Below are positions 4,095 to 31,076 of a stretch of DNA of 56,090 bases, one piece after another (position 1 is the first letter of the stretch; each line of letters opens with the position of its first letter). The notes under the pieces are model-generated. The model searched no databases and was not told where the DNA came from. It saw nothing but the letters and a program-made list of their open reading frames with translations. The stretch comes from a virus (taxonomy: Duplodnaviria; Caudoviricetes). The position numbers and the translations under genes were made by a program. The stretch spans positions 1 through 56,090 of IMG/VR virus record IMGVR_UViG_3300037191_001062; one strand, given 5' to 3'.

Positions 4095-4706
4095 ATGAAA
4101 AAAAATAAATTTGATAATAACTTCTTAGATTTACTGCAGCCAAGCAAATCTAAGGATTTCTTTACTTCCAGATCAACTGATGTTGTTCATGATTTTTACT
4201 TATCAGGACCAGTAGAAACTCCAGAATATTACGTCGAATGGTTTAATATAATTAGAAACTGCAGTGAAGCTGATACAGTACATATACATATTAACTCGTG
4301 TGGTGGTGATCTACTTGCTGCTATACAGATGATGCGAGTTTTGCGCGAGTGTCGGGCTACTGTAATTGCTTCAGTTGAAGGCGCTTGTATGTCAGCGGCA
4401 ACAATGATATTCTTGAGTGCTGATGTATTCGAATTATCTAGTCATACAATGTTTATGTTCCACAACTATGCTGGAAAAACCTCTGGTAAAGGTGGAGAAA
4501 TGTATAGTCAAATAATTCATGAACGCTGTTGGTCAGCTAAATTATTAAGAGATGTTTACTGCGGTTTTTTAACAAAAAGAGAAATCAAAGATATGCTTAA
4601 TAATAAAGATTTGTGGATGGATGGTAAAGAAGTTTTACTGCGCCTAGAGAAACGTTCGTGCAAATTAGAAAAACGCGAAGCTAAGAAAAAAGCCAAAGTT
4701 GATTAA
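4095..4706 (+). CDS. ClpP-like serine protease
   Basis: INSCGGD, ACMSAATMIF (Ser), FMFHN (His), KDLWM (Asp). Confidence 0.85.
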   Translation: MKKNKFDNNFLDLLQPSKSKDFFTSRSTDVVHDFYLSGPVETPEYYVEWFNIIRNCSEADTVHIHINSCGGDLLAAIQMMRVLRECRATVIASVEGACMSAATMIFLSADVFELSSHTMFMFHNYAGKTSGKGGEMYSQIIHERCWSAKLLRDVYCGFLTKREIKDMLNNKDLWMDGKEVLLRLEKRSCKLEKREAKKKAKVD

Positions 4707-5594: not shown

Positions 5595-6170
5595 ATGACA
5601 CTAAACTTAAGAGAACTGACCAAAGAGAATCATAATAATATAGAAGGCTCAGATTTTGCTGAAATATTATTAGGCGGAAGAATAAATCCACTACTATATT
5701 ACCAGTATCTCTCGGCCCAGTATGAGATTTATGAAGCACTTGAGTCGTTAGTGACAATTCCGTCAAAACTTAAAACTGTTTTTCGAGCTTCTCATATAAT
5801 GCAAGATATGCATGGACTTGAAGATGAGTATGGACTTGAAGAAATAACCGAAAACCTCGAATCAGTTAGTTCATATATTAGTCATATAACCGAGCTTAGC
5901 GCAAAAGGAGAACATGATAAGCTATTAGCTCATCTGTACGTTCGGCATTTTGGTGATTTACATGGTGGTCAAATAATCAAAAAGAGAGTCCCTGGTTCTG
6001 GTACAATGTATGAGTTTACTGGTCGCAAACAGTTGATCACAGATCTTCGTAGTATGTTAAATAATGATATGGCCCCAGAAGCTATTGTCTGTTTTAAGTT
6101 TGCAGAGCTATTATTTTTAGAATTAGTTGATAATTTTGAAGGTGAAGATTTTGAAGTTGATGATCTATAA
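5595..6170 (+). CDS. hemO: heme oxygenase (HemO/Ho1-like)
   Basis: LRELTKENH proximal His; AHLYVRHFGDLHGGQII distal helix signature. Confidence 0.92.
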   Translation: MTLNLRELTKENHNNIEGSDFAEILLGGRINPLLYYQYLSAQYEIYEALESLVTIPSKLKTVFRASHIMQDMHGLEDEYGLEEITENLESVSSYISHITELSAKGEHDKLLAHLYVRHFGDLHGGQIIKKRVPGSGTMYEFTGRKQLITDLRSMLNNDMAPEAIVCFKFAELLFLELVDNFEGEDFEVDDL

Positions 6171-6847
6171 TGGATATCAATCCACTCTGGGATAAACTTG
6201 ATACATTTGCATCAAGTCTTAGCGAAACGTTTAATAATCATTTAAAACCGTTTATAAACGAAAAACATGATCAGCAATTCGATGGGTGGACTGATTCTTT
6301 CTGGTGTAGTGATAACATTAGAAAGTGTCATTTGAAAACGATTAACGATGGTAGAATGTGGTTGCTACATATCAATATATTTCCAAGAGAAAATGTTAAC
6401 TTACCTATTCTTGGTTTTGATATAGTTGCATCTAAAACTAAAATAAGTGGTTCGTTTTTTGACTTTTCTCCTGTTATAAAAGATCAAGTTCATCCATTAT
6501 GCGAACTGTTTAAAGCGTCTGTTAAGGATATTAAATGGAATAAACCAAGAGATTTACCTGAATGGGCTACTGAAATATTCTCAGACAACATGGTTGCTGC
6601 TGGTTCTATCACTTATGGTGATGAGTTAGAACAGTTGATTTGTTTATCTACTAACCTTATTAAGGCTTATTTGGCTTCTTGCAATGATATTAAAATGATT
6701 ACTACCTTACCAACTAAAACTCAACTTAACAAATATTGTGAAAATCAGAAGATGAATAAGCACCTGCATAGATCTATACTTGCTATGGGCATATCAGAAC
6801 AAGCTAAAGATAGATATATTAATAACGTTTTATTTGAAGAAATTTAA
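6170..6847 (+). CDS. ferredoxin-dependent bilin reductase, PcyX/PcyA-like
   Basis: W.SDNIRKCH, LLHINIFP, PILGFDIVA, GSFFDFSP, RDLPEWA.IFS, YCENQKMN motifs; stop/start coupled to heme oxygenase. Confidence 0.88.
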   Translation: MDINPLWDKLDTFASSLSETFNNHLKPFINEKHDQQFDGWTDSFWCSDNIRKCHLKTINDGRMWLLHINIFPRENVNLPILGFDIVASKTKISGSFFDFSPVIKDQVHPLCELFKASVKDIKWNKPRDLPEWATEIFSDNMVAAGSITYGDELEQLICLSTNLIKAYLASCNDIKMITTLPTKTQLNKYCENQKMNKHLHRSILAMGISEQAKDRYINNVLFEEI

Positions 6848-6855
6848 ATAAAACG

Positions 6856-6884
6856 TTGACATTTATTTATAACTGTGTTATAAT
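6856..6884 (+). promoter_or_regulatory. sigma70-type early promoter
   Basis: TTGACA-17-TATAAT. Confidence 0.85.
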
Positions 6885-6931
6885 AGCACATCAAATAGGA
6901 AAAAGCTTATTTGAACAACTAAGGAGATATT

Positions 6932-7168
6932 ATGACTGTAATCGCATTAACACCAGAAAAAATACATCATGAAATATCCCATATGATAGCAAGTGGAATT
7001 CCTTACATCGAAGCTCTTGTTGAATATTCGGAAAAGAACAACATCGAAATTGAAGTTGTTGCTAGTGTAGTTAAAAAATCTGCTGTGTTGCGCGAAAAAG
7101 TTAAAAGTGAAGCTATAAATCTTAGGATGGTATATGACGATGATATCGACATCACAGAATTTAATTAA
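6932..7168 (+). CDS. 33: late-transcription coactivator gp33
   Basis: YIEALVEYSEKNNIEIE...LREKVKSEAINL; T4 synteny 33-59-32. Confidence 0.85.
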   Translation: MTVIALTPEKIHHEISHMIASGIPYIEALVEYSEKNNIEIEVVASVVKKSAVLREKVKSEAINLRMVYDDDIDITEFN

Positions 7169-9079: not shown

Positions 9080-9985
9080 ATGAGTCTTTTAGATAAAATG
9101 TTAAAATCCGGTTCAATCAAACAAGCTGGTGTTGTAAATAAATCTGCTTTCTTTGACGAAAAAGAACCAATTCAGACTGAATTACCAATTGTGAATATCG
9201 CTTTTAGTGGTTCACTTAAAGGTGGTTTAATCCCAGGTCTAACTGTTGTCGCTGGTGCATCAAAAAGTTTCAAAACTCTACTATCACTGTATTGTATGAA
9301 AGCATATCTTGAAAAATATAAAGATGGTGTTGCTTTGTTGTATGATTCAGAATTTGGTATTACACCAGATTATTTAGAAAGTTTTGATATTGATACGTCA
9401 CGTGTACTACATATTCCAATCGAAGATGTTGAACAGCTTAAATTTGATATCGTTAAGCGATTAGACCAGATTGATAAGAAAGATCGTGTATTCATCATGA
9501 TCGATTCTATCGGTAACTTAGCTTCTAAGAAAGAAGTTGACGATGCTATGAAAGATAACTCAGCTGCTGATATGACTCGTGCTAAGCAACTTAAATCTTT
9601 ATTTCGCATCATAACTCCAAAGCTAACTACAAGAAACATTCCTTGTTTAGCTGTTAATCATATCTATCAAGAAATTGGTATGTTTCCTAAGAATATTGTA
9701 TCTGGTGGTTGCGTAGTTGAAGGCACAGAAATTCAAACACCAGATGGTCTTAAGAATGTTGAAGACTTCAATGTTGGCGAAAAAGTTATTACTCTAAACG
9801 GTGATAAAGTTGTAAGTCATGTTTGGAACCCTGATACACTTGAAGATGGCAATCCAGAATGTTATGAAGTTGAATTTGAAGATGGATTTAAAGCAACTGT
9901 TTCAGATAAACATAAATTCTTGGTTAACGAAGAATGGGTTGAAGCTAAAGATTTAGTTGTTGGAATGGATTGTACTGTTATTTAG
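9080..9985 (+). CDS. uvsX: UvsX recombinase N-extein (aa 1-210) fused to split-intein N-fragment (aa 211-301)
   Basis: Walker A GASKSFKT, YDSEFG, IDSIGNLASKKE; then CVVEGTEIQT (intein block A) and TVSDKHKF (block B). Confidence 0.95.
   Translation: MSLLDKMLKSGSIKQAGVVNKSAFFDEKEPIQTELPIVNIAFSGSLKGGLIPGLTVVAGASKSFKTLLSLYCMKAYLEKYKDGVALLYDSEFGITPDYLESFDIDTSRVLHIPIEDVEQLKFDIVKRLDQIDKKDRVFIMIDSIGNLASKKEVDDAMKDNSAADMTRAKQLKSLFRIITPKLTTRNIPCLAVNHIYQEIGMFPKNIVSGGCVVEGTEIQTPDGLKNVEDFNVGEKVITLNGDKVVSHVWNPDTLEDGNPECYEVEFEDGFKATVSDKHKFLVNEEWVEAKDLVVGMDCTVI
9710..9985 (+). mobile_element. split intein N-fragment (IntN, 91 aa)
   Basis: Cys1 directly after SGG, SxxH block B, WVEAKDL..G.D end typical of IntN. 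Confidence 0.9.
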
Positions 9986-10038: not shown

Positions 10039-10155
10039 ATGAAAATAGTTAACGTTAAACAGGTTGGTAGAAAACCGGTTTATGATTTATCAATAGCAAC
10101 TGAAAATTATGATGAGCAACATTATGTACTCAAAAATGGTATAGTAACACACAAT
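10039..10155 (+). mobile_element. split intein C-fragment (IntC, 39 aa)
   Basis: block F VYDL, block G terminal His-Asn, +1 Thr. Confidence 0.92.
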
Positions 10156-10581
10156 ACTGGTATCTATTATTCAGCAAATCAAATCTTTATTATTAGTAAG
10201 TCTCAAGAAAAAGATGGTACTGATTTAGCAGGATTTAAATTTACAATCAATATCGAAAAATCTCGTTTTGTTCGTGAAAAAGCAAAACTACCATTCACTG
10301 TATTGTATGATTCTGGTATTCAAAAGTGGTCAGCATTGTTTGACTTAGCTATTGAATCTGGACATATAGCAAAAGGCGCCACTCAAGGCTGGTATAATGT
10401 TGTTGACCAAGAAACTGGTGAGCTTGTTGAACCTAAGCGTAGACAGAAAGACTTAGGTTCTGATGATAAATTCTTCGAAGCTCTTGTTAAAAACGAAACA
10501 TTTAACAACTTTATCGAACGTAAATATAAATTGACTATACCAGGAAAAATGAAAGATGATGGAAACAACGATACTATCTAA
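10039..10581 (+). CDS. uvsX: split-intein C-fragment (aa 1-39) fused to UvsX C-extein
   Basis: AAGGA RBS; MKIV..VYDLSI...HYVLKNGIVTHN|TGIYYSANQIFII, KSRFVREK. Confidence 0.95.
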   Translation: MKIVNVKQVGRKPVYDLSIATENYDEQHYVLKNGIVTHNTGIYYSANQIFIISKSQEKDGTDLAGFKFTINIEKSRFVREKAKLPFTVLYDSGIQKWSALFDLAIESGHIAKGATQGWYNVVDQETGELVEPKRRQKDLGSDDKFFEALVKNETFNNFIERKYKLTIPGKMKDDGNNDTI

Positions 10582-19952: not shown

Positions 19953-20252
19953 ATGGCTTCATGGGGAAAAACTGATACTTTAGCAGATGCTCCAAAGTAC
20001 TTAACAGACACAGAAGTAGCTACAACAGTATTCATTGATACTAACGAAGCAGTAGTTTCAGCTAACAGATCAAAAGGTCTTAAAACTCCGGGTTGGAATA
20101 CGTATTCAGAATATGTAGACCAAAATGGTAACACTCGTAAAAAAGTTGAACCGTTAGTTGTAATGAAAGTTACTGCTGCTGAAGACACTGGTCTAGATGT
20201 TGGTGTAACTGGTGATACTGCAGTTGAAGATGCTATAGTTGCAGATAGTTAA
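19953..20252 (+). CDS. conserved late hypothetical protein
   Basis: GAGGA RBS; MASWG..D, GLKTPGW, RKKVEPLV. Confidence 0.8.
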   Translation: MASWGKTDTLADAPKYLTDTEVATTVFIDTNEAVVSANRSKGLKTPGWNTYSEYVDQNGNTRKKVEPLVVMKVTAAEDTGLDVGVTGDTAVEDAIVADS

Positions 20253-20290
20253 TAAATAACTATATAATAAAAACTATATAGATAATAACT

Positions 20291-20665
20291 ATGAAATTGA
20301 CAGAACAAACCTTTCTTTTATATGCAATGAAGCATTACGATAATCCTCATTGCACTGACGTTGCTGAATTTGAAGAAGACTTAAAAAGATTTCAATATCT
20401 TAGAAAACTTTTCGGAAGATATAGACAAGAAAAAGATTTAAAAGAAAGGTTAATTCTTAATCATCTTATAGTTATTTACAATGTGTTTGGAATTGAAGCT
20501 ACTCAAATGTTATTTTTTAAGCTGCATCAATATCACGAGTATTTATTACCGTTTGTTGAATATTTAAATTATATGCCAAACGTTGTTGAATATGAGAATT
20601 TAAGTATAGCAAAAGTTTCTATTGATTCAGACAAGCATATCGTAAATACACTAAAGGGAATATAA
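20291..20665 (+). CDS. conserved T4-like hypothetical protein
   Basis: YAMKHYDNP.C...EFEEDLKRF.Y, ERLILNH. Confidence 0.85.
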   Translation: MKLTEQTFLLYAMKHYDNPHCTDVAEFEEDLKRFQYLRKLFGRYRQEKDLKERLILNHLIVIYNVFGIEATQMLFFKLHQYHEYLLPFVEYLNYMPNVVEYENLSIAKVSIDSDKHIVNTLKGI

Positions 20666-20668
20666 CAA

Positions 20669-21199
20669 ATGGTAGATTTATTTTTAGTCTATAAGTTTAT
20701 ACGACAACTTACAAAATCGTTCGTTAACTGGGATGCCTATAAAGAAGGCATAATAGATAAAGATGGAAAAATTCTTATCAAAAGAAAGGATTTAAAGACA
20801 CAAAAAGAAAAAAGCGCATTTGGCGTTTTAGAATTAATGATCTTAAATATTAAAAATTTATTAGCTAAACTCCCAGGGAATGGCAAACTTGGTTCGTACT
20901 CAGCGGCATTATGGTTAATAAGAGAATGGAATCATTTTAGTGACGATACTTTATTGACCGAAGATATAACTGATGATCAAATACATAGATCAGTAGCTAA
21001 ATTTAATAGATGTTATACTCATTATATCATAGAAGCGGAAAATGTCAACGATTATTTTAAGCTAAATGAAAAAAAGATTAATGAAGAACCTACAGTATCA
21101 GCTGGTTCTGGTAATATTGCTGGTATTGGTGTTGGACCAGACGGTGAACCGCCCAAGCCAAAAAAGAAATTAAAGGATGTGATGCGGAGAAATAAATGA
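20669..21199 (+). CDS. conserved T4-like hypothetical protein
   Basis: DLFLVYKFIR.L..F..WDAYKEGIID.DG; AALWLIRE. Confidence 0.8.
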   Translation: MVDLFLVYKFIRQLTKSFVNWDAYKEGIIDKDGKILIKRKDLKTQKEKSAFGVLELMILNIKNLLAKLPGNGKLGSYSAALWLIREWNHFSDDTLLTEDITDDQIHRSVAKFNRCYTHYIIEAENVNDYFKLNEKKINEEPTVSAGSGNIAGIGVGPDGEPPKPKKKLKDVMRRNK

Positions 21200-21651
21200 A
21201 ACCTAAAAATAAAGAAAATCTATTTGAACAATTAAAAATAGACGAAGGCGTAAAGTATCACACGTATTTAGATCACTTAGGTTATCACACATTCGGTGTT
21301 GGTCATTTAGTCGTGTCGACAGACGAAGAATTTGGCGAGTTTGTTGGAACTCTAGTTAGTGAAGTTCGTGTGTGGGAAGTATTCCACTCAGATTTGGATA
21401 AGATGATTGGCGAATGTGAGATATTATTCGATGGTTATTGGCATTGTTTTCCTGGTGAAGTACAAGAAATTCTAGTGAATATGATGTTCAATATGGGTAG
21501 AACCCGCCTATCAAAATTCAAAAACATGATAATCCAATTAAAACTTCACGATTGGGCTCAAAGTGCAATCGAAGGCCGAGATAGTCGTTGGCATAAACAA
21601 GTACCAAACAGAGCAGAACGTCTAATGGTGCGCCTTGAAAATTATAAATAA
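21196..21651 (+). CDS. endolysin, T4-lysozyme family (GH24)
   Basis: DEG...YLDHLGYHTFGVGH (E-x8-D-x5-T), NMMFNMG, DSRWHKQVPNRAERL. Confidence 0.92.
   Translation: MKPKNKENLFEQLKIDEGVKYHTYLDHLGYHTFGVGHLVVSTDEEFGEFVGTLVSEVRVWEVFHSDLDKMIGECEILFDGYWHCFPGEVQEILVNMMFNMGRTRLSKFKNMIIQLKLHDWAQSAIEGRDSRWHKQVPNRAERLMVRLENYK
21643..21650 (+). promoter_or_regulatory. T4-type late promoter
   Basis: TATAAATA overlapping the endolysin stop codon. Confidence 0.75.
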
Positions 21652-21682
21652 CTAGTAATATTAATCCTTAGGAGAACATTAA

Positions 21683-21883
21683 ATGTCAATCGAAAAAATA
21701 ATTGCACACGCAATTCAAGGTAACGTGCTTGAAATGGAAGAATCGTTTAAAGAAGAAATGCGTGATCGCATATCTATTGAACTTGAAGAAAAAAGAAAGA
21801 AAATAGCTAAAGAGTCTGAAGAAGATGAACTCGAAGATGATGATGATGAAGATGAACTCGAAGAATATTCTAACAAAAAATGA
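21683..21883 (+). CDS. acidic protein resembling prohead core protein gp67
   Basis: AGGAG RBS; II.HAI.GN..E....F...M..RI...LE..R..IA plus acidic tail. Confidence 0.6.
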   Translation: MSIEKIIAHAIQGNVLEMEESFKEEMRDRISIELEEKRKKIAKESEEDELEDDDDEDELEEYSNKK

Positions 21884-22140
21884 ATTGTTAAGCGAAACAA
21901 TTACAACATCTACTGATAATAACTCAACATTGCGTTGCTAAGAAAATAATTACTCTATTAAAAAGAGCAATAAATTGATAAGAACTACAACGTAATGTTC
22001 AGTGAATTTGATAGTGTTGAATTAAATAGTACATCAAAAAAGTGCACTTAGCACTATCAAATTCTGTTAAAACAGCTAAAAATAAGATTTCGTTTAGTGA
22101 CGCACTAGAATATAACTTCATCATTGATATTACGAATATG
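21883..22140 (+). ncRNA. candidate structured RNA in intergenic gap
   Basis: stems 21883-21902, 21926-21937/21988-21999 and 22004-22020/22048-22064 with G-U pairs; no ORF. Confidence 0.4.
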
Positions 22141-22230
22141 TAAATTAAGTACTAACTAATTTTAATAATGTATATAAGTTACTTGTTAGGTTCTATAAGA
22201 TATAGAGTTGAAAAAACTCAGGAGAGCAAC

Positions 22231-22872
22231 TTGTCAGAAGAACATGATATTAAACCAAGACGTAGATTAGATATATCTTCTTTAATTATTGTCATTATTA
22301 CAAATTTTGTTACGTTATCAGGTTCATTATTTGCGTTCAAGACTAGTCAGGATACTACTCAGAGCGCATTAATGAAAACTGCTTTACATCAAGTGCAATT
22401 GCAGAGTAAAGAAATAGTAGAACTTAGAGGTTTACTATTAGATGCTCAAATAAAGATAATAAATTTAGAAACTAGAGTTAGATCAAATGTTGATGAAACT
22501 GTGTTGATGTCTGAATTTTTAGACTCTCTACCATTTCCAGCTTGGATTAAAAGATTCCGCAAAGAAGACGGATTATTTGAAATGACTCTCATAAACCAAC
22601 ACTACACTGCTGACTTTGGTTATACGGAAAATGAATACATTGGCAAGACTGATTTTGATATACATAGTGATGAACTTGCTAGTTTATATTTATCAGATGA
22701 TCTTATGGTTTTAAGCACTGAGAAAATGCGGGTTATAGAACAAATTATGGTAACCAAGAACGGTGTTCCTAAAAAGATATTTGTTTATAAGTTTATAATC
22801 AGGCTACCAGACGGTGAATTAGCAGTAGGCGGTGTAGCAATAGATAAGAAAGATATTGGTGTAATACATTAA
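22231..22872 (+). CDS. TM + coiled coil + PAS-domain protein
   Basis: in-frame TTG after AGGAG (ORF track starts at 22168); FLDSLPFPAWIK...IN..Y...FG....YIGKTDFDI...DD..VL is a PAS_4-type pattern. Confidence 0.8.
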   Translation: MSEEHDIKPRRRLDISSLIIVIITNFVTLSGSLFAFKTSQDTTQSALMKTALHQVQLQSKEIVELRGLLLDAQIKIINLETRVRSNVDETVLMSEFLDSLPFPAWIKRFRKEDGLFEMTLINQHYTADFGYTENEYIGKTDFDIHSDELASLYLSDDLMVLSTEKMRVIEQIMVTKNGVPKKIFVYKFIIRLPDGELAVGGVAIDKKDIGVIH

Positions 22873-22890
22873 ATAACGCGGGGTTCAATT

Positions 22891-23382
22891 ATGAATTGGT
22901 CAGATATAAAAGGTGTCATTGGTAATATTGCCCCATTAGTTGGTACTGCTATTGGTGGTCCAGCTGGTACAGTCATAGGTTCAATGGTGTCAAATGCATT
23001 AGGTGTAGATAATACCCCCGACGCTATCGCATTAGCGCTAAAAACTGACCCGGAAGCTGCAATAAAACTACGAAAATTTCAAATTGATAATGAAAAAGAT
23101 ATTCGAAAGCATGCTTTCGAAGTTCTTGATGTCGAACTTCAAGACAAACAAAGTGCCCGTAATTCGCACAAACATAATCCGATGCCAATGATAATATGTA
23201 TAGCACTAACAGGAATGGTTGCCGGTGGCGCTTATATGTTATTTACAATGGATATTCCTGTTGATAACAAAAACATAGCAAACTTACTATTCGGTACGTT
23301 GTTAGCAAAATGGGGTGACTCAATAGCATACTGGGTTGGTACAACGCGTTCAAGCAGTGAAAAAACAAAATTGATGAAATAA
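22891..23382 (+). CDS. 3TM holin-like protein
   Basis: APLVGTAIGGPAG N-terminus, D.QSAR, two C-terminal TM segments, YWVGTTRSS.EK. Confidence 0.75.
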   Translation: MNWSDIKGVIGNIAPLVGTAIGGPAGTVIGSMVSNALGVDNTPDAIALALKTDPEAAIKLRKFQIDNEKDIRKHAFEVLDVELQDKQSARNSHKHNPMPMIICIALTGMVAGGAYMLFTMDIPVDNKNIANLLFGTLLAKWGDSIAYWVGTTRSSSEKTKLMK

Positions 23383-23384
23383 AG

Positions 23385-23413
23385 TTGACATTTTAGTTAT
23401 ACTATGTTATAAT
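23385..23413 (+). promoter_or_regulatory. sigma70-type promoter for primase operon
   Basis: TTGACA-17-TATAAT. Confidence 0.85.
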
Positions 23414-23459
23414 GTATCTACGATAAAAACGAATAAGACTGTATAATTTAACATAGTCG

Positions 23460-23488
23460 TTGACATATATAGTTGACTGTGATACAAT
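23460..23488 (+). promoter_or_regulatory. second tandem sigma70-type promoter
   Basis: TTGACA-17-TACAAT. Confidence 0.7.
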
Positions 23489-23526
23489 ACAACAATCATA
23501 GAAACAACTAAAGAAGTGTATAATGA

Positions 23527-24558
23527 ATGATTGATTTTGTAGAAATAAAATATGCTCAATTGCTTGCTGGTAGACTTGACAATTATAGAGTAAAATCCCA
23601 CGCACCATATAAGATTAATTTTAGATGTCCTATATGTGGCGACTCTGAAAAAAGCAAGTCTAAGACTCGTGGATGGCTCATAGAAAAGAATAATGGCTTT
23701 TACTTCTATTGTCACAATGGTTGTGGTAGTAGGTCCTTTAATCAATTTCTTAAAAGTCAAGACAATATGTTATTCAACGACTATATTGCCGAAAAGTTCA
23801 TGAGCAAGAATACTTCTAATTCTAAAAAAGAAAAAGAACGCACAATCACTGGCGATATGTTCACTGCACCAAAATTCAATAAAGAAAAACCTGTTGATCC
23901 CTTAAAGAAAATCAAAAAGATAAGCCAATTAGAGTGGAACCATCCTATAAAACGATATATCAATCGTAGAGAGATTCCAACTAACCAGCATTATCGCATG
24001 TATTTTGCTAAGAAATTTCAAGCCTGGATTAACACGATCATACCAGACAAGTTTCCTAATATTAAAAAAGACGAACCTCGTTTAGTCATACCATTTCTTG
24101 ACGAAGATGGTAAAATGTTTGGTTGTTCAGCTCGTGGTTTTGATCCTAACGGAATAAGATATATATCTATAATGTTCGATGAAAGACCTAAAGTATTTGG
24201 ATTAGACACTGTTGATTTTAATCGTGAATACTTCATACTTGAAGGAGCTTTAGATAGTATGTTTATAGAAAACTCCGTTGCCATGGCAGGCGCAGATGGT
24301 AATATTGGGGGTTTTGAAAATATAGAAAATGCAGTATTTGTGTTTGATTCTGAACCGCGCAATAATCAAATACATAAGCTTATGACAAAGATTATAAAAT
24401 CTGGTTATAAGATATGTATATGGCCAGATAATGTTCCTGGTAAAGATATTAACGAAATGTTTTTGAATGGTGTCAAAAGCCCAAGAAAACTGATAAAAGA
24501 AAACACATATTTTGGTTTAACAGCAGAAGCTAAATTTTCGGCGTGGAGAAAGACGTAG
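23527..24558 (+). CDS. 61: DNA primase gp61
   Basis: FRCPICGDS...CHNGC zinc finger, RLVIPF, EGALDSMF, DINEM Toprim motifs. Confidence 0.97.
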   Translation: MIDFVEIKYAQLLAGRLDNYRVKSHAPYKINFRCPICGDSEKSKSKTRGWLIEKNNGFYFYCHNGCGSRSFNQFLKSQDNMLFNDYIAEKFMSKNTSNSKKEKERTITGDMFTAPKFNKEKPVDPLKKIKKISQLEWNHPIKRYINRREIPTNQHYRMYFAKKFQAWINTIIPDKFPNIKKDEPRLVIPFLDEDGKMFGCSARGFDPNGIRYISIMFDERPKVFGLDTVDFNREYFILEGALDSMFIENSVAMAGADGNIGGFENIENAVFVFDSEPRNNQIHKLMTKIIKSGYKICIWPDNVPGKDINEMFLNGVKSPRKLIKENTYFGLTAEAKFSAWRKT

Positions 24559-24560
24559 TT

Positions 24561-25139
24561 ATGATTAATATGATATTAGCAATTGATCTTGAAGGTGGTA
24601 TTGGTAAAGATGGAACACTACCTTGGTATTATCCTGAAGATTTAAAAAGATTCAAGATGTTAACTAAAGACGATATTGTTGTAATGGGTAGAAATACTTG
24701 GAACGATCCTAAGTTTCCTAAACCTTTAAAGAGTAGAAAAACTGTTGTGTGTTCTAGGAATAGTGATTTACTAATAGAACCATATCATATTGACGTAATT
24801 CTTGATGGCAAATATAGCGATATACCCAACGAAATTAATTGGATTTATAATACTGATGTAATTCTTGATGCTTCTGAAGGTGATACACCTAAGAAAGTTA
24901 ATTGGCCGGATTACCTTGAAATAATAAACCATAGTAATAAAAACGTATGGATTATTGGTGGCGCTAAGTTATATCATCAAATGTTGTTGCACGTTGATAA
25001 TGTATTCCTGACGATGATATTTGATACTCATGACTGTGACACGTTTTTTGATACCTCGATACTATACGATAAATTTGAAATTATTGGGAAAGAACACTTC
25101 GATGATTATTCTTTCTTAACATATAGGAGAAATAAATAA
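24561..25139 (+). CDS. frd: dihydrofolate reductase with internal 21-aa duplication
   Basis: IGKDGTLPW..PEDLKRFK, VVMGRNTW, WIIGGAKLY, CDTFF; start uncertain (24543, 24561 or 24570). Confidence 0.93.
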   Translation: MINMILAIDLEGGIGKDGTLPWYYPEDLKRFKMLTKDDIVVMGRNTWNDPKFPKPLKSRKTVVCSRNSDLLIEPYHIDVILDGKYSDIPNEINWIYNTDVILDASEGDTPKKVNWPDYLEIINHSNKNVWIIGGAKLYHQMLLHVDNVFLTMIFDTHDCDTFFDTSILYDKFEIIGKEHFDDYSFLTYRRNK

Positions 25140-30455: not shown

Positions 30456-30655
30456 CTGTGAACGATGTTGAAAATCAAATTGAACGTGATAAACGCGACT
30501 TAAAGTTTAAGTGTGACTATGAGATAGATTCATGCTGTCAAACTCTATGTGTATCTTCTGTAGTAAAGGATTACATAACATCGCTTGAAGATGAAATAGT
30601 ATTATTAAAAAATAAATTATTGGAGATAGAAAGTGAAAACATTGTATGTGAGTAG
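30452..30655 (+). CDS. hypothetical protein
   Basis: ATGA overlap with glutaredoxin. Confidence 0.65.
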   Translation: MTVNDVENQIERDKRDLKFKCDYEIDSCCQTLCVSSVVKDYITSLEDEIVLLKNKLLEIESENIVCE

Positions 30656-31076
30656 ACAATTGATTAACTCTGTAGAGTTTATAGGATGGGCAAGGTCTCA
30701 AGGATTTGATGAAATGTTAGATGAAAGTGAGTTCCATGTAACAATCGCATTCTCTCGTGAAAAAGTTGATTGGGATGAGATTGAACTTAAAACAGACACA
30801 ATGACAATAAGCGGCGGTAAAAGATTAGTTGAACCATTAGGTGATGATGGCGCAGTTGTATTAAAATTTAATTCCGATTTTTTACCAAAAAGATGGCAAG
30901 AAATACGAGATGTTGGCGCTTCATGGGACTTTGAAGGCTATACTCCGCACGTAACTATAAAATACAACGATATTGATATTGACCTTTCACAAGTTGAACC
31001 GTTTACCGGTAAACTTATATTCGGTCCTGAAACAATGACTGAACTCAACCTGAATTGGTCTAAGGATAAAAAATGA
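30633..31076 (+). CDS. acb1: Acb1 / T4 gp57B-like 2H phosphodiesterase (anti-CBASS)
   Basis: two HxT motifs (FHVTIAFSR, YTPHVTIKY), GASWDF, C-terminal Trp (LNLNW); GGAG RBS. Confidence 0.85.
   Translation: MKTLYVSRQLINSVEFIGWARSQGFDEMLDESEFHVTIAFSREKVDWDEIELKTDTMTISGGKRLVEPLGDDGAVVLKFNSDFLPKRWQEIRDVGASWDFEGYTPHVTIKYNDIDIDLSQVEPFTGKLIFGPETMTELNLNWSKDKK

Follow-up and report, generated by a model that had tools for sequence, protein, structure and literature searches.

What does a membrane-anchored PAS protein do among the lysis genes of a phage? The question is raised by the window, a stretch of 56,090 nucleotides from an uncultured marine T4-like phage, in which a PAS gene lies between an endolysin gene and a probable holin gene. 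The timing set by holins is a textbook example of a simple molecular clock, and the well-studied adjustment of this timing to outside conditions is the lysis inhibition of the T-even phages; a similar adjustment has reportedly been seen in ICP1 and N4. If a PAS component acts in lysis cassettes, burst timing would be linked to a chemical signal, and this would provide a testable handle on the lysis decision of marine phages. A full-text literature search found no description of such a PAS protein, and a term look-up in a 2025 survey of viral lytic proteins gave no occurrence of 'PAS', 'sensor' or 'antiholin'. The recurrence of PAS homologues among lysis genes in several phages that are unrelated to one another suggests that burst timing may be tuned in a way not yet described.

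The locus occupies positions 21196 to 23382 on the plus strand and contains all five elements of the original prediction in the predicted order: a T4 e-type lysozyme, a 66-aa acidic protein, a non-coding gap, the TM-coiled coil-PAS protein, and a probable holin. The gene set is kept in the related contigs L001 and L002 with protein identities of 56-79%, and therefore the open reading frames are not chance occurrences. The lysozyme (21196..21651, plus strand, 151 aa) is a soluble endolysin that scores 24.3 bits against PF00959 (cut-off 22.3), and its residues 8-145 align to T4 lysozyme chains in phmmer (E ~1e-18) with the positions of the Glu/Asp/Thr triad retained. No TM segment was found in it with a Kyte-Doolittle scan. 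The following ORF (21683..21883, plus strand) encodes a 66-aa helical protein with a poly-acidic tail that is 45-49% identical in L001 and L002 and has only a weak match, to phrog_1064 'prohead' (E 0.0012). The non-coding gap behind it (21884..22230) is 284 nt long if the PAS gene begins at the ATG at 22168 and 347 nt long if it begins at the TTG at 22231. The gap had been described as structured, which is true of one long hairpin, a perfect 13-bp inverted repeat with arms at 22004-22016 and 22052-22064, but not of the gap as a whole, whose folding is not significantly better than that of shuffled sequences (z = -1.52; 6 of 100 shuffles did as well). No Rfam family and no tRNA match was found in the gap, and it is neither alignable to the shorter gap of L001 nor conserved there.

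The longest ORF of the PAS gene starts at the ATG at 22168 and encodes 234 aa. An in-frame TTG at 22231 is preceded, 6 nt upstream, by an AGGAG ribosome-binding site (site and start together 22220..22233, plus strand), and seven homologues of the PAS protein are 175-224 aa long with aligned N-termini near this TTG. Because of the AGGAG and of the lengths and starts of the homologues, the gene most likely starts at the TTG and encodes a product of 213 aa (22231..22872, plus strand) rather than 234 aa, as judged from sequence. The 213-aa form has one hydrophobic segment, a single helix at residues 15-36 (22273..22338, plus strand) with a TNxVTLxG motif, and residues 37-213 make up the soluble part. 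A motif of the [ST]NxxxL type, [ST]N..[ST]L, is found in the TM helix of 17 of 46 family representatives. A coiled-coil-like helix of 45 residues (residues 42-86; 22354..22488, plus strand) follows, as seen from the AF2 model and the heptads, with hydrophobic residues at 10 of 13 a/d positions, a count that was reached in 49 of 2000 shuffles. The PAS domain (residues 100-209; 22528..22857, plus strand) opens with an invariant LPFPAW(I/V)K motif. Mean pairwise identity is 52% in the TM helix, 56% in the coiled coil, and 47% in the PAS core. Conservation of the TM helix and of the coiled coil thus equals or exceeds that of the PAS core, and this, together with the polar TM motif, is in keeping with contacts between helices in the membrane more than with simple anchoring.

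The predicted PAS fold is borne out by Pfam, by the AF2 model, and by Foldseek. PAS_4 (PF08448) matches residues 137-225 of the 234-aa ORF with 25.4 bits (cut-off 23.1), and the homologues score from 14.9 to 36.3 bits. The AF2 model has the five-strand PAS layout, with strands at residues 104-110 and 115-120, four helices, and strands at 167-174, 180-191, and 197-205, and the pLDDT block means over the domain are 79-94. At least 250 matches at E<=0.001 were found in the PDB with Foldseek, the best of which are to LOV domains, HTR-like PAS, FixL, HIF/ARNT, and VqmA, with TMt values of 0.57-0.71 for single-domain chains. Additionally, the family profile matches the PAS domain of BvgS (E 1.3e-4), and the only PHROG match of the protein is to phrog_31932, a family of unknown function (E 0.0045). 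The claim that the protein carries no output domain also held up, as PAS_4 is the sole domain found and the protein stops right after the last PAS strand.

A profile search with the family gave 34,268 matches. The best 150 include 44 single-stretch proteins (155-236 aa), most of which span nearly the whole profile. There are also several Atlas clusters, with viral members only and 60 to 1142 members each, that resemble the short PAS protein. The remaining 106 of the best 150 are long multi-PAS sensors (549-3009 aa) in which only the PAS part matches; their best stretch starts no earlier than profile position 40 and lies outside the TM region. No fused output domain was found among the best 150 of the 34,268 matches. 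The PAS units of bacterial PAS histidine kinases (multi-PAS proteins, BvgS) are close sequence relatives of the phage PAS domain, and an Azonexus kinase starts with LPFPAWLKD. The order of TM helix, coiled coil, and PAS domain recalls the N-terminal part of ArcB (TM-zipper-PAS), to which the protein has a weak match (E 0.0035; 15.6 bits, cut-off 838). Unlike these sensor kinases, the phage protein has no kinase, receiver, GGDEF, HTH, or other output domain.

The gene for the neighbouring 163-aa protein (22891..23382, plus strand) starts 18 nt past the stop codon of the PAS gene. This protein belongs to the phrog_1544 family (E 2e-32) and is a probable holin. It had been described as a 3TM holin; in the AF2 model the two long hydrophobic helices at residues 98-119 and 124-152 are firm, but the first TM helix, a broken glycine-zipper helix at residues 15-37, is plausible and not firm. 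One phage record labels its homologue of the 163-aa protein a 3TM-type holin. Its helical membrane nature and its gene position directly behind an endolysin are shared with the 3TM holins of gene transfer agents (PF11351), and the BFVD models labelled 'Holin of 3TMs, for gene-transfer release' are weak fold matches (E 1.2e-3 to 1.7e-2, TMq 0.24-0.47). The 163-aa protein differs from the PF11351 holins in its N-terminal glycine-zipper and in a basic helical region of about 57 residues, and it has a basic tail, RSSSEKTKLMK. It has no PF11351 match at E<=0.1 and no NCBIfam match near any cut-off.

The phrog_1544 family is found in 417 phage records and forms 267 protein clusters at E<=1e-10. In 13 of 17 loci scanned in other phages, the phrog_1544-type gene lies no more than one gene downstream of a peptidoglycan hydrolase, and these hydrolases are of the M15_3, M15_4, GH108, Amidase_2, muramidase, and pesticin-type lysozyme classes. 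The closest cultured case is Oceanospirillum phage GJ44, in which an amidase gene abuts the gene for a protein 64% identical to the 163-aa holin. These findings support naming phrog_1544, now listed as 'unknown function', an endolysin-coupled probable holin family. No PAS homologue was found in any of the 18 such phrog_1544 loci. Since the pair is contiguous in 13 of 17 loci and is accompanied by a PAS gene in none of 18, the acidic ORF, the gap, and the PAS gene of the window lineage represent an insertion between the two members of an endolysin-holin pair, and the predicted placement of the PAS gene inside the lysis module is supported. The phrog_1544 holin evidently works elsewhere without a PAS protein, and the PAS protein is therefore accessory.

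Homologues of the PAS protein also occur in lysis cassettes of three further, unrelated lineages, each of which has another endolysin class. In L005, the order is M15-type endolysin, 195-aa protein, PAS gene, and stop and start codons overlap. The cassette of L009 consists of an Amidase_2 gene, the PAS gene, and a gene for a lipoprotein with an LSAC lipobox and a C-terminal TM segment, and that of L016 consists of the PAS gene, a secreted SLT endolysin, an Rz-like protein, and an overlapping lipobox ORF. A looser link is seen in Cellulophaga phages (lysozyme 1.5 kb downstream of the PAS gene) and in L004 (GH108 and a phrog_1544 protein 4.5 kb downstream). Overall, the PAS gene lies within two genes of a peptidoglycan hydrolase in 4 of about 12 judgeable lineages. 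At least six PAS-bearing lineages (L006, L017, L020, L008, the Brevundimonas jumbo phages, and G004/L007) have no endolysin nearby; in the complete genome of G004/L007 the phrog_465 endolysin is ~16 kb from the PAS gene, which is adjacent to a Peptidase_C92 gene. The linkage of the homologues to lysis genes that the original prediction called for is thus present in the window lineage, L005, L009, and L016 and missing in the six other lineages. A phrog_1544-type protein was found in none of the five other PAS-bearing records, an empty search result of a kind that is weak evidence. The endolysin operon of L005/G003 encodes no clear membrane protein besides the PAS protein, and no PHROG 'lysis' family except that of the endolysin was found there among the scanned proteins (83 of 137 ORFs, encoding proteins of up to 300 aa that had not been scanned earlier).

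We tentatively favor the explanation that the PAS protein is an accessory, sensor-bearing regulator of holin triggering, and we consider it quite possible that this is its role. The 213-aa protein would be an accessory part of the lysis module, a membrane-tethered PAS sensor that is probably dimerized by its coiled coil and may be made together with the adjacent holin, ahead of whose start its gene ends by 18 nt. It would shift the time at which the holin triggers, in an antiholin-like or co-holin-like manner, and the cue may be a small molecule or a redox signal bound by the PAS domain. The role in lysis timing that had been predicted for the protein is favored by the PAS fold, the position in the module, and the recurrence in cassettes, while the six unlinked lineages count against it. 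The partner holins differ between the cassettes, and therefore a specific contact between the PAS protein and the holin would have had to arise anew in each of them, unless the action is generic.

Unrelated accessory genes are known to gather beside lysis and tail-fiber genes, and the protein could be a membrane sensor with another function (e.g. superinfection exclusion, host manipulation, or defense) in a variable region that sometimes adjoins lysis genes. The six lineages without a nearby endolysin fit such a sensor, as does the position of the gene behind tail-fiber or structural genes in L004, L006, L009, and the Cellulophaga phages, and short phage PAS proteins form many large uncharacterized clusters. 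The comparison with the T4-like L008 is also in its favor; L008 and the window have the upstream DUF7207 and phrog_18642 genes in common, but no lysozyme or holin gene lies beside the PAS gene of L008, and therefore the conserved neighbors within the T4-like phages are not lysis genes. Against this stand four independent cassettes with four hydrolase classes (GH24, M15, Amidase_2, and SLT) in which the gene is within or abutting, with overlapping or near-abutting reading frames in two of the four, and the fact that the gene in the window splits a pair that is otherwise mostly contiguous. Under a rough null of ~5% for a random gene lying no more than two genes from an endolysin, 4 of 12 has a P of ~0.002, which is a rough estimate. 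On this balance a sensor unconnected with lysis appears rather unlikely.

The PAS protein could instead be a holin itself, of the T4 T type (class III architecture), whose short, charged N-tail would lie in the cytoplasm and whose single TM helix would be followed by a periplasmic coiled coil and ligand-binding PAS domain that would control oligomerization. T4 T has one TM helix with the topology N-in, C-out, and lysis timing is regulated via its large soluble domain; the 218 aa of T compare with 213 aa here, where the TM helix is near the N-terminus and is followed by ~175 soluble residues. Holin genes usually lie upstream of the endolysin and Rz/Rz1, and the PAS gene of L016 is upstream of an endolysin and an Rz/Rz1 pair; in L005/G003 no other clear membrane protein is available in the endolysin operon to serve as the holin. 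The conserved polar TM helix and the basic N-tails (KPRRR in the window, 8 Lys/Arg in the longest ORF of L016, and several others) also point this way, the latter favoring N-in. Over 47 members, however, the flanks hold 98 Lys/Arg on the N side and 85 on the C side (N greater in 18, equal in 17, smaller in 12), and the nearest cellular relatives are the cytoplasmic PAS modules of sensor kinases, which points to a cytoplasmic PAS domain. In L008 and the Brevundimonas phages the PAS domain occurs as a soluble protein without a signal peptide, which likewise favors C-in. The comparison with T4 T itself revealed no sequence similarity and no convincing fold similarity, the soluble domain here being a classical PAS fold: hhalign gave a probability of 0.2%, holin T is not among the Pfam matches at E<=0.1, and the class III holin model is a poor fold match (rank 30, E 0.027, TMq 0.30). 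A probable holin of a different, multi-helix family is already next door in the window. We regard a T-type holin as unlikely. An i-spanin-like role, with an inner-membrane anchor, a periplasmic coiled coil, and a C-terminal domain reaching the outer membrane or an o-spanin, is scarcely credible. An N-terminal TM helix followed by a coiled coil is indeed the i-spanin layout, and in L009 the next gene encodes the LSAC lipoprotein; but that lipoprotein has its own C-terminal TM segment, which is the u-spanin layout, and L016 has its own Rz-like gene and overlapping lipobox ORF beside the PAS homologue. There is no plausible lipobox ORF in or beside the PAS gene or elsewhere in the window, and the PAS protein has no PHROG spanin family match.

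A regulator of holin triggering has partial counterparts in known systems. The lysis-timing system of the T4-type phages includes, besides T, the antiholins RI and RIII, which are accessory, act on the holin, and are dispensable for lysis as such. No rI-like or rIII-like gene was noticed in the window in the course of the other searches. The lysis cassette of F1-cluster mycobacteriophages has the holin-like pair LysF1a/LysF1b (PMC13056207), in which a small multi-TM holin-like protein requires a partner that has one N-terminal TMD (predicted N-out, C-in), and both proteins shape lysis timing. The likeness is by architecture only; the host is Gram-positive-like, and no PAS or sensor domain is mentioned in the abstract of that study. 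The VqmA protein of phage VP882, a PAS-HTH quorum-sensing receptor, is a phage-encoded PAS ligand sensor tied to the lysis-lysogeny switch, and VqmA PAS domains are among the fold matches (6ide, TMq 0.48, rmsd 2.7; 7dwm, phage VqmA). As a transcription factor, VqmA is soluble and has a DNA-binding domain, whereas the protein described here is membrane-anchored, has no DNA-binding domain, and is encoded among lysis effector genes.

The window also encodes a heme oxygenase and a bilin reductase (5595-6170 and 6170-6847), ~15 kb upstream, and it had been speculated that the PAS domain senses the heme or bilin product of these enzymes. A heme oxygenase is also encoded by G001, the closest PAS-bearing relative, and heme-binding PAS (FixL, 1d06) is among the fold matches. 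Beyond the closest relative the link found no support, since a heme oxygenase is present in one of five PAS-bearing records searched (G001) and in none of the three that are at least 90% complete. The sole conserved His (GKTDFDIH, at the start of the F-alpha helix) is not invariant, being Trp or Tyr in distant members, the protein has no LOV-type Cys motif, and bilins normally bind to GAF rather than PAS domains. A heme or bilin sensor is highly improbable.

It may be that the TM-coiled coil-PAS proteins are a family of ligand-controlled holins or antiholins, exchanged among the cassettes of unrelated marine phages, that gate lysis timing by sensing a small molecule or redox state. This broader proposal is doubtful at present. 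If it is true, burst time would be set by a chemical cue and not by holin concentration alone, and possible cues would include the energy state of the host, the oxygen or redox level, and a periplasmic signal of superinfection. Such a system would be the sensor-domain counterpart of T4 lysis inhibition, and it would give a role to a sizeable group of uncharacterized short phage PAS proteins (the 44 of the best 150 profile matches).

Promoter-like elements flank the inserted genes and the holin gene. The octamer TATAAATA (21643..21650, plus strand), which resembles the T4 late-promoter consensus, is located 40 nt upstream of the acidic ORF; sites of this type number 13 in the window against 11.55 expected and are thus not enriched, and the position of the octamer ahead of a gene start is only suggestive. 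Strong promoters were seen only 3' of the holin gene, where two sigma-70-like promoters (23385..23488, plus strand; 12/12 and 11/12 matches) close the module ahead of the primase gene.

The gene order of the original prediction (endolysin, small acidic protein, structured gap, TM-coiled coil-PAS protein, and holin-like gene) is correct in the window, and the lysis block as a whole is kept in two T4-like relatives (contig loci L001 and L002) with protein identities of 56-79%. The first gene (21196-21651, plus strand) encodes a soluble T4 e-type lysozyme (PF00959, 24.3 bits); its alignment to T4 lysozyme chains has an E value of about 1e-18 and pairs the catalytic Glu, Asp, and Thr. It is followed by an ORF (21683-21883, plus strand), also kept in L001 and L002, for a 66-aa protein with a poly-acidic tail, the sole family match of which is weak (phrog_1064, 'prohead', E 0.0012). 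The T4 late-promoter-like octamer TATAAATA lies 40 nt 5' of this ORF; it is not enriched in the window (13 sites versus 11.55 expected). The gap preceding the PAS gene is structured insofar as it contains a single perfect inverted repeat (13-bp arms, 35-nt loop), but its overall folding is unremarkable when compared to shuffled sequences (z = -1.52; 6 of 100 shuffles fold equally well) and it is not alignable with the shorter gap of L001.

The longest ORF of the PAS gene starts at an ATG at 22168. An in-frame TTG at 22231 is preceded by AGGAG at a distance of 6 nt, and seven database homologues are 175-224 aa long with N-termini near this point; for these reasons the product was taken as 213 aa. 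An AF2 model based on 14 family members (mean pLDDT 76.5) contains a helix over the hydrophobic segment (residues 15-37), one long helix (42-86), and a domain of two strands, four helices, and three strands with block-mean pLDDT values of 79-94. Hydrophobic residues occupy 10 of the 13 a/d heptad positions of the long helix, a number equalled by 49 of 2000 shuffles. The proposed PAS fold is borne out by this model, by a match to Pfam PAS_4 (25.4 bits, just over the cut-off of 23.1), and by Foldseek, which returned at least 250 PDB matches at E<=0.001, the top ones being LOV domains, an archaeal HTR-like PAS domain, FixL, ARNT/HIF PAS-B, and VqmA. Additionally, the family profile picks up the BvgS PAS domain by sequence (E 1.3e-4). 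The claim that no kinase or other output domain is present also holds, as the protein has nothing past the PAS domain; a kinase or a transcription factor is thereby ruled out.

Run against 1.84 billion representatives, the family profile returned 34,268 matches at E<=0.001. The best 150 of these comprise 44 single-stretch proteins of 155-236 aa, most of which span nearly the whole profile, and 106 longer sensors (549-3009 aa, 3-11 PAS repeats) whose match is confined to the PAS part. The first PAS domain of a cellular Azonexus sensor kinase opens with LPFPAWLKD and also carries GKTDFDI, motifs that are common to the phage family. On this evidence the phage protein is a PAS unit of the classical sensor-kinase kind, to which a membrane helix and a coiled coil, but no transmitter, are attached. 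By a word-indexed search the close family is small, with 7 other clusters out of 5.8 billion; in the ESM Atlas, short PAS proteins form several clusters that are restricted to viruses and have 60-1142 members each. When the window protein was compared to phage records by tblastn, only Brevundimonas jumbo phages were matched, and the homologues from loci L005 and L018 added Cellulophaga phages. No prophage copy was identified among the 9 weak or partial matches from a scan of genome contigs, and the one locus inspected (L046) is a cellular multi-domain sensor kinase. In NCBIfam neither the PAS protein nor the holin nor the neighbor proteins of related loci had a match that came close to a cut-off, and the nearest PHROGs model for the PAS family (phrog_31932) is annotated as 'unknown function', as is that of the holin family (phrog_1544).

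The gene that starts 18 nt past the PAS stop codon (22891-23382, plus strand) encodes a probable holin of 163 aa (phrog_1544, E 2e-32). There are 267 homologous clusters at E<=1e-10, and tblastn matched 417 phage records, in a few of which the product is called holin, putative holin, or 3TM-type holin. Modelled by AF2, the protein shows two long hydrophobic helices, a helix with a glycine zipper, a helical region of basic character, and a C-terminal tail that is also basic; the model has weak matches (E 1.2e-3 to 1.7e-2) to BFVD entries that bear the name 'Holin of 3TMs, for gene-transfer release', and the PF11351 profile does not match the 163-aa protein. With this holin as the query 20 viral loci were collected, two of which are the T4-like relatives, leaving 18. 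The upstream genes were scanned in 17 of these (L032 has the same ORF layout as L031 and was left out), and 13 of them have a peptidoglycan hydrolase gene immediately 5' of the holin or separated from it by one small gene. The hydrolase families are Peptidase_M15_3, Peptidase_M15_4, GH108 with PG_binding_3, Amidase_2, pesticin-type lysozyme, and muramidase with PG_binding_1; the upstream scan of the other four loci (L035, L036, L037, and L041) gave no hydrolase match. The cultured Oceanospirillum phage GJ44 has an amidase gene that abuts a holin homologue (64% identity to that of the window) 5' of the terminase genes. A PAS homologue was found in none of the 18 loci by blastp or by hmmsearch with the family profile (E<=0.01). 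Therefore, in the window lineage three elements (acidic ORF, gap, and PAS gene) sit within an endolysin-holin pair that is contiguous elsewhere, and the holin evidently functions without the PAS protein in most phages. Prediction of a complex between the PAS protein and the holin scored 0.00 in two runs, a result that is no answer and bears on binding in neither direction.

Scans of viral and metagenome contigs for PAS homologues gave 9 and 11 loci, respectively; L011 and L015 are the contigs of L003 and L007, respectively, L013 resembles L004, L014 resembles L006, and L021 was dropped as a cellular multi-domain sensor. L003, L012, and L018/L019 fall on short contigs or at contig ends and were left out of the linkage count. 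The PAS gene lies within or abuts a lysis cassette in L005, L009, L016, and the window lineage (a GH24 lysozyme in the last). The provirus L005 has the order phrog_465/M15 endolysin, 195-aa protein, PAS gene, HNH, and terminase genes, with overlapping stop and start codons at the PAS gene, and L009 has a tail protein, Amidase_2, the PAS gene, a lipoprotein, and a 148-aa membrane protein. The lipoprotein of L009 (6345-6845, 166 aa), directly 3' of the PAS homologue, has an LSAC lipobox and a C-terminal TM helix, which is the layout of a unimolecular spanin (u-spanin). The PAS homologue of L016 is followed by a complete lysis cassette (5752-6935) of an SLT endolysin with an N-terminal signal or anchor, an Rz-like i-spanin, and an overlapping lipobox ORF (6654/6678-6935), and then by the portal gene. 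A looser link is seen in two Cellulophaga phages, phi19:1 and Nekkels_1, with a lysozyme gene 1.5 kb (four genes) 3' of the PAS homologue, and in L004, where GH108 and then a phrog_1544 protein lie 4.5 kb 3' of it. The Cellulophaga homologue gp108 is not among the proteins marked in the records as virion-proteomics finds, and a literature search on Cellulophaga transcriptomics yielded nothing on the PAS homologues.

No lysis link was found in L006, L017, L020, the T4-like L008, the Brevundimonas jumbo phages, and the complete 45.6-kb genome G004 (locus L007). In G004 a Peptidase_C92 gene adjoins the PAS gene, but this genome was not counted as linked, as the phrog_465 endolysin is about 16 kb away; the scan of G004 and a second phage genome, G003, covered 83 of 137 ORFs, omitting proteins >300 aa and those scanned earlier. 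L008 has DUF7207 and phrog_18642 genes upstream, as the window does, but neither a lysozyme nor a holin beside the PAS gene, and this counts against a strict tie between PAS and lysis genes. Overall, the PAS gene is no more than two genes from a hydrolase in 4 of about 12 judgeable lineages, with four hydrolases from four families, and six lineages are unlinked. If each lineage had a 5% chance of such linkage, a rough null, the probability would be about 0.002 by our own estimate. Just 5' of the PAS homologue in L012 (60-419) is a phrog_2524 protein, and such a protein adjoins the phrog_465 endolysin in G004 (L058 341-709), which may be a further weak thread from the PAS family to lysis genes. 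Two-TM proteins that match phrog_3342 and phrog_23985 (both 'unknown function') are encoded a few genes from the PAS homologue in L004 (4422-5072) and L016 (1368-1658) and are candidate small holins.

The interpretation of the PAS protein as a regulator of lysis timing is thus supported in part, by a PAS fold without an output domain within a lysis module, and is weakened by the absence of linkage in six lineages. The best, if tentative, reading is that the protein would serve as a sensor-bearing accessory regulator of holin triggering, and we infer every functional step of it from context. The unlinked lineages could also be explained if the protein were an unrelated membrane sensor in a variable region; given the recurrence of hydrolases of four families beside the PAS gene, we consider this rather unlikely. 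The T4 holin T has one TM helix and a large soluble domain. The PAS protein shares this layout and could be a T-like single-TM holin itself, but it is no member of the T family (hhalign probability 0.2%) and its fold match to a class III holin model is poor, which makes this reading unlikely. A spanin-like role for the single-TM protein is extremely improbable, as the window lacks a lipoprotein partner and L016 has an Rz/Rz1 pair separate from its PAS homologue. By analogy, an accessory regulator of this kind would act most like an antiholin or a second holin-like protein. LysF1b of F1-cluster mycobacteriophages offers a parallel in layout: it has a single N-terminal TM helix, is predicted to be N-out, C-in, and is required together with a two-TM holin-like protein (PMC13056207). 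Searches of the literature for PAS domains together with holin, endolysin, lysis, or phage found no description of such a protein, and a term look-up in a 2025 survey of viral lytic proteins returned no instance of PAS, sensor, or antiholin.

The odds of a periplasmic versus a cytoplasmic PAS domain are near even. An N-in orientation, with a periplasmic PAS domain, is indicated by the KPRRR beside the helix in the N-tail of the window protein, by the 4-5 Lys/Arg in the N-tails of several members (8 in the longest ORF of L016), and by the flank charges, which are net positive on the N side (98 Lys/Arg versus 77 Asp/Glu) and net negative on the C side (85 versus 109). On the cytoplasmic side, Lys/Arg counts alone are near equal (N>C in 18, equal in 17, and N<C in 12 of 47 members), and the cellular PAS relatives are cytoplasmic modules. 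In L008 (5878-6746) and the Brevundimonas phages (L010 3881-4811) the PAS domain is encoded by itself as a soluble protein (152-166 aa) without a signal sequence, which also favors the cytoplasm. The product of the next gene in both is a coiled-coil protein whose C-terminal TM helix ends in GAG(G). A true fission is not supported, as these partners have no detectable similarity to the fused TM-coiled coil or to each other, and the parallel is architectural only. A cytoplasmic PAS domain is favored as well by holin residues 40-96, the sole sizeable soluble part of that protein, which carry 10 Lys/Arg and are predicted to be cytoplasmic. The C-terminus of the 66-aa acidic protein is a run of Asp/Glu, and a charge-based contact with this holin region is conceivable. 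The TM helix of the PAS protein bears a polar motif of the TNxVTLxG type in 17 of 46 representatives and is about as conserved in the close family as the remainder (mean pairwise identity of 52%, versus 56% for the coiled coil and 47% for the PAS core), which suggests that it may make specific contacts within the membrane.

A link between the PAS domain and heme or bilin finds no support as a property of the family. Heme oxygenase was found in one of five PAS-bearing phage records, that of the closest relative (G001), and in none of the three that are at least 90% complete. The conserved His of the family lies at the start of the F-alpha helix and is replaced by Trp or Tyr in distant members, and heme or bilin as the ligand, a matter separate from the function of the protein, is very unlikely. 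A heme oxygenase gene in the window (5595-6170; PF01126, E 1.1e-20) adjoins that of a ferredoxin-dependent bilin reductase (6170-6847; PF05996, E 2.6e-19), and no photosystem genes were found in the window of this T4-like phage.

The 56,090 bases have a G+C content of 30-36% with nearly all genes on the plus strand. They encode a replication and nucleotide set of the T4 type (gp59, gp32, UvsX/RecA-like, gp41-type helicase, primase, DHFR, ThyA, class I RNR, RNase H, and PhoH), and the helicase shares 50-52% identity with its counterparts in Caulobacter phage Cr30, Stenotrophomonas phage DLP_6, cyanomyoviruses, and Methylophilales phage Melnitz; the source is therefore an uncultured marine T4-like phage. 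Shared words matched one marine-metagenome DNA run (0.40 share) and no listed RNA run, which carries no information on expression; a nucleotide search of 20000-25000 against phage records gave only three short matches (69-70% identity), and Rfam and tRNA scans of the window found nothing. Two near-consensus sigma-70-type promoters, both with a TG extension (23385-23413 and 23460-23488; 12/12 and 11/12 matches), lie 3' of the holin gene and 5' of the primase-DHFR-ThyA-RNR block, which suggests that an early transcription unit begins directly past the lysis genes.

The UvsX/RecA-like gene is apparently in two ORFs, one (9080-9985) with the RecA core and a short Hint-domain match at residues 211-242 and the other (10039-10581) with the C-terminal domain of T4 UvsX; the arrangement may reflect a split gene or the remains of an intein. 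A homologue of the Acb1 anti-CBASS nuclease (30633-31076; PF23474, E 4.9e-38) precedes a membrane protein of the DUF454 family. Genes for an SPFH/Band 7 protein and a ClpP/NfeD-like protease lie close together (536-1399 and 4095-4706), a pairing seen in cellular stomatin operons. The nrdA gene of L001 (9638-12071) may be interrupted: its large-subunit RNR ORF is 543 aa versus 753 aa in the window and is followed by a 239-aa ORF without a match in the window.
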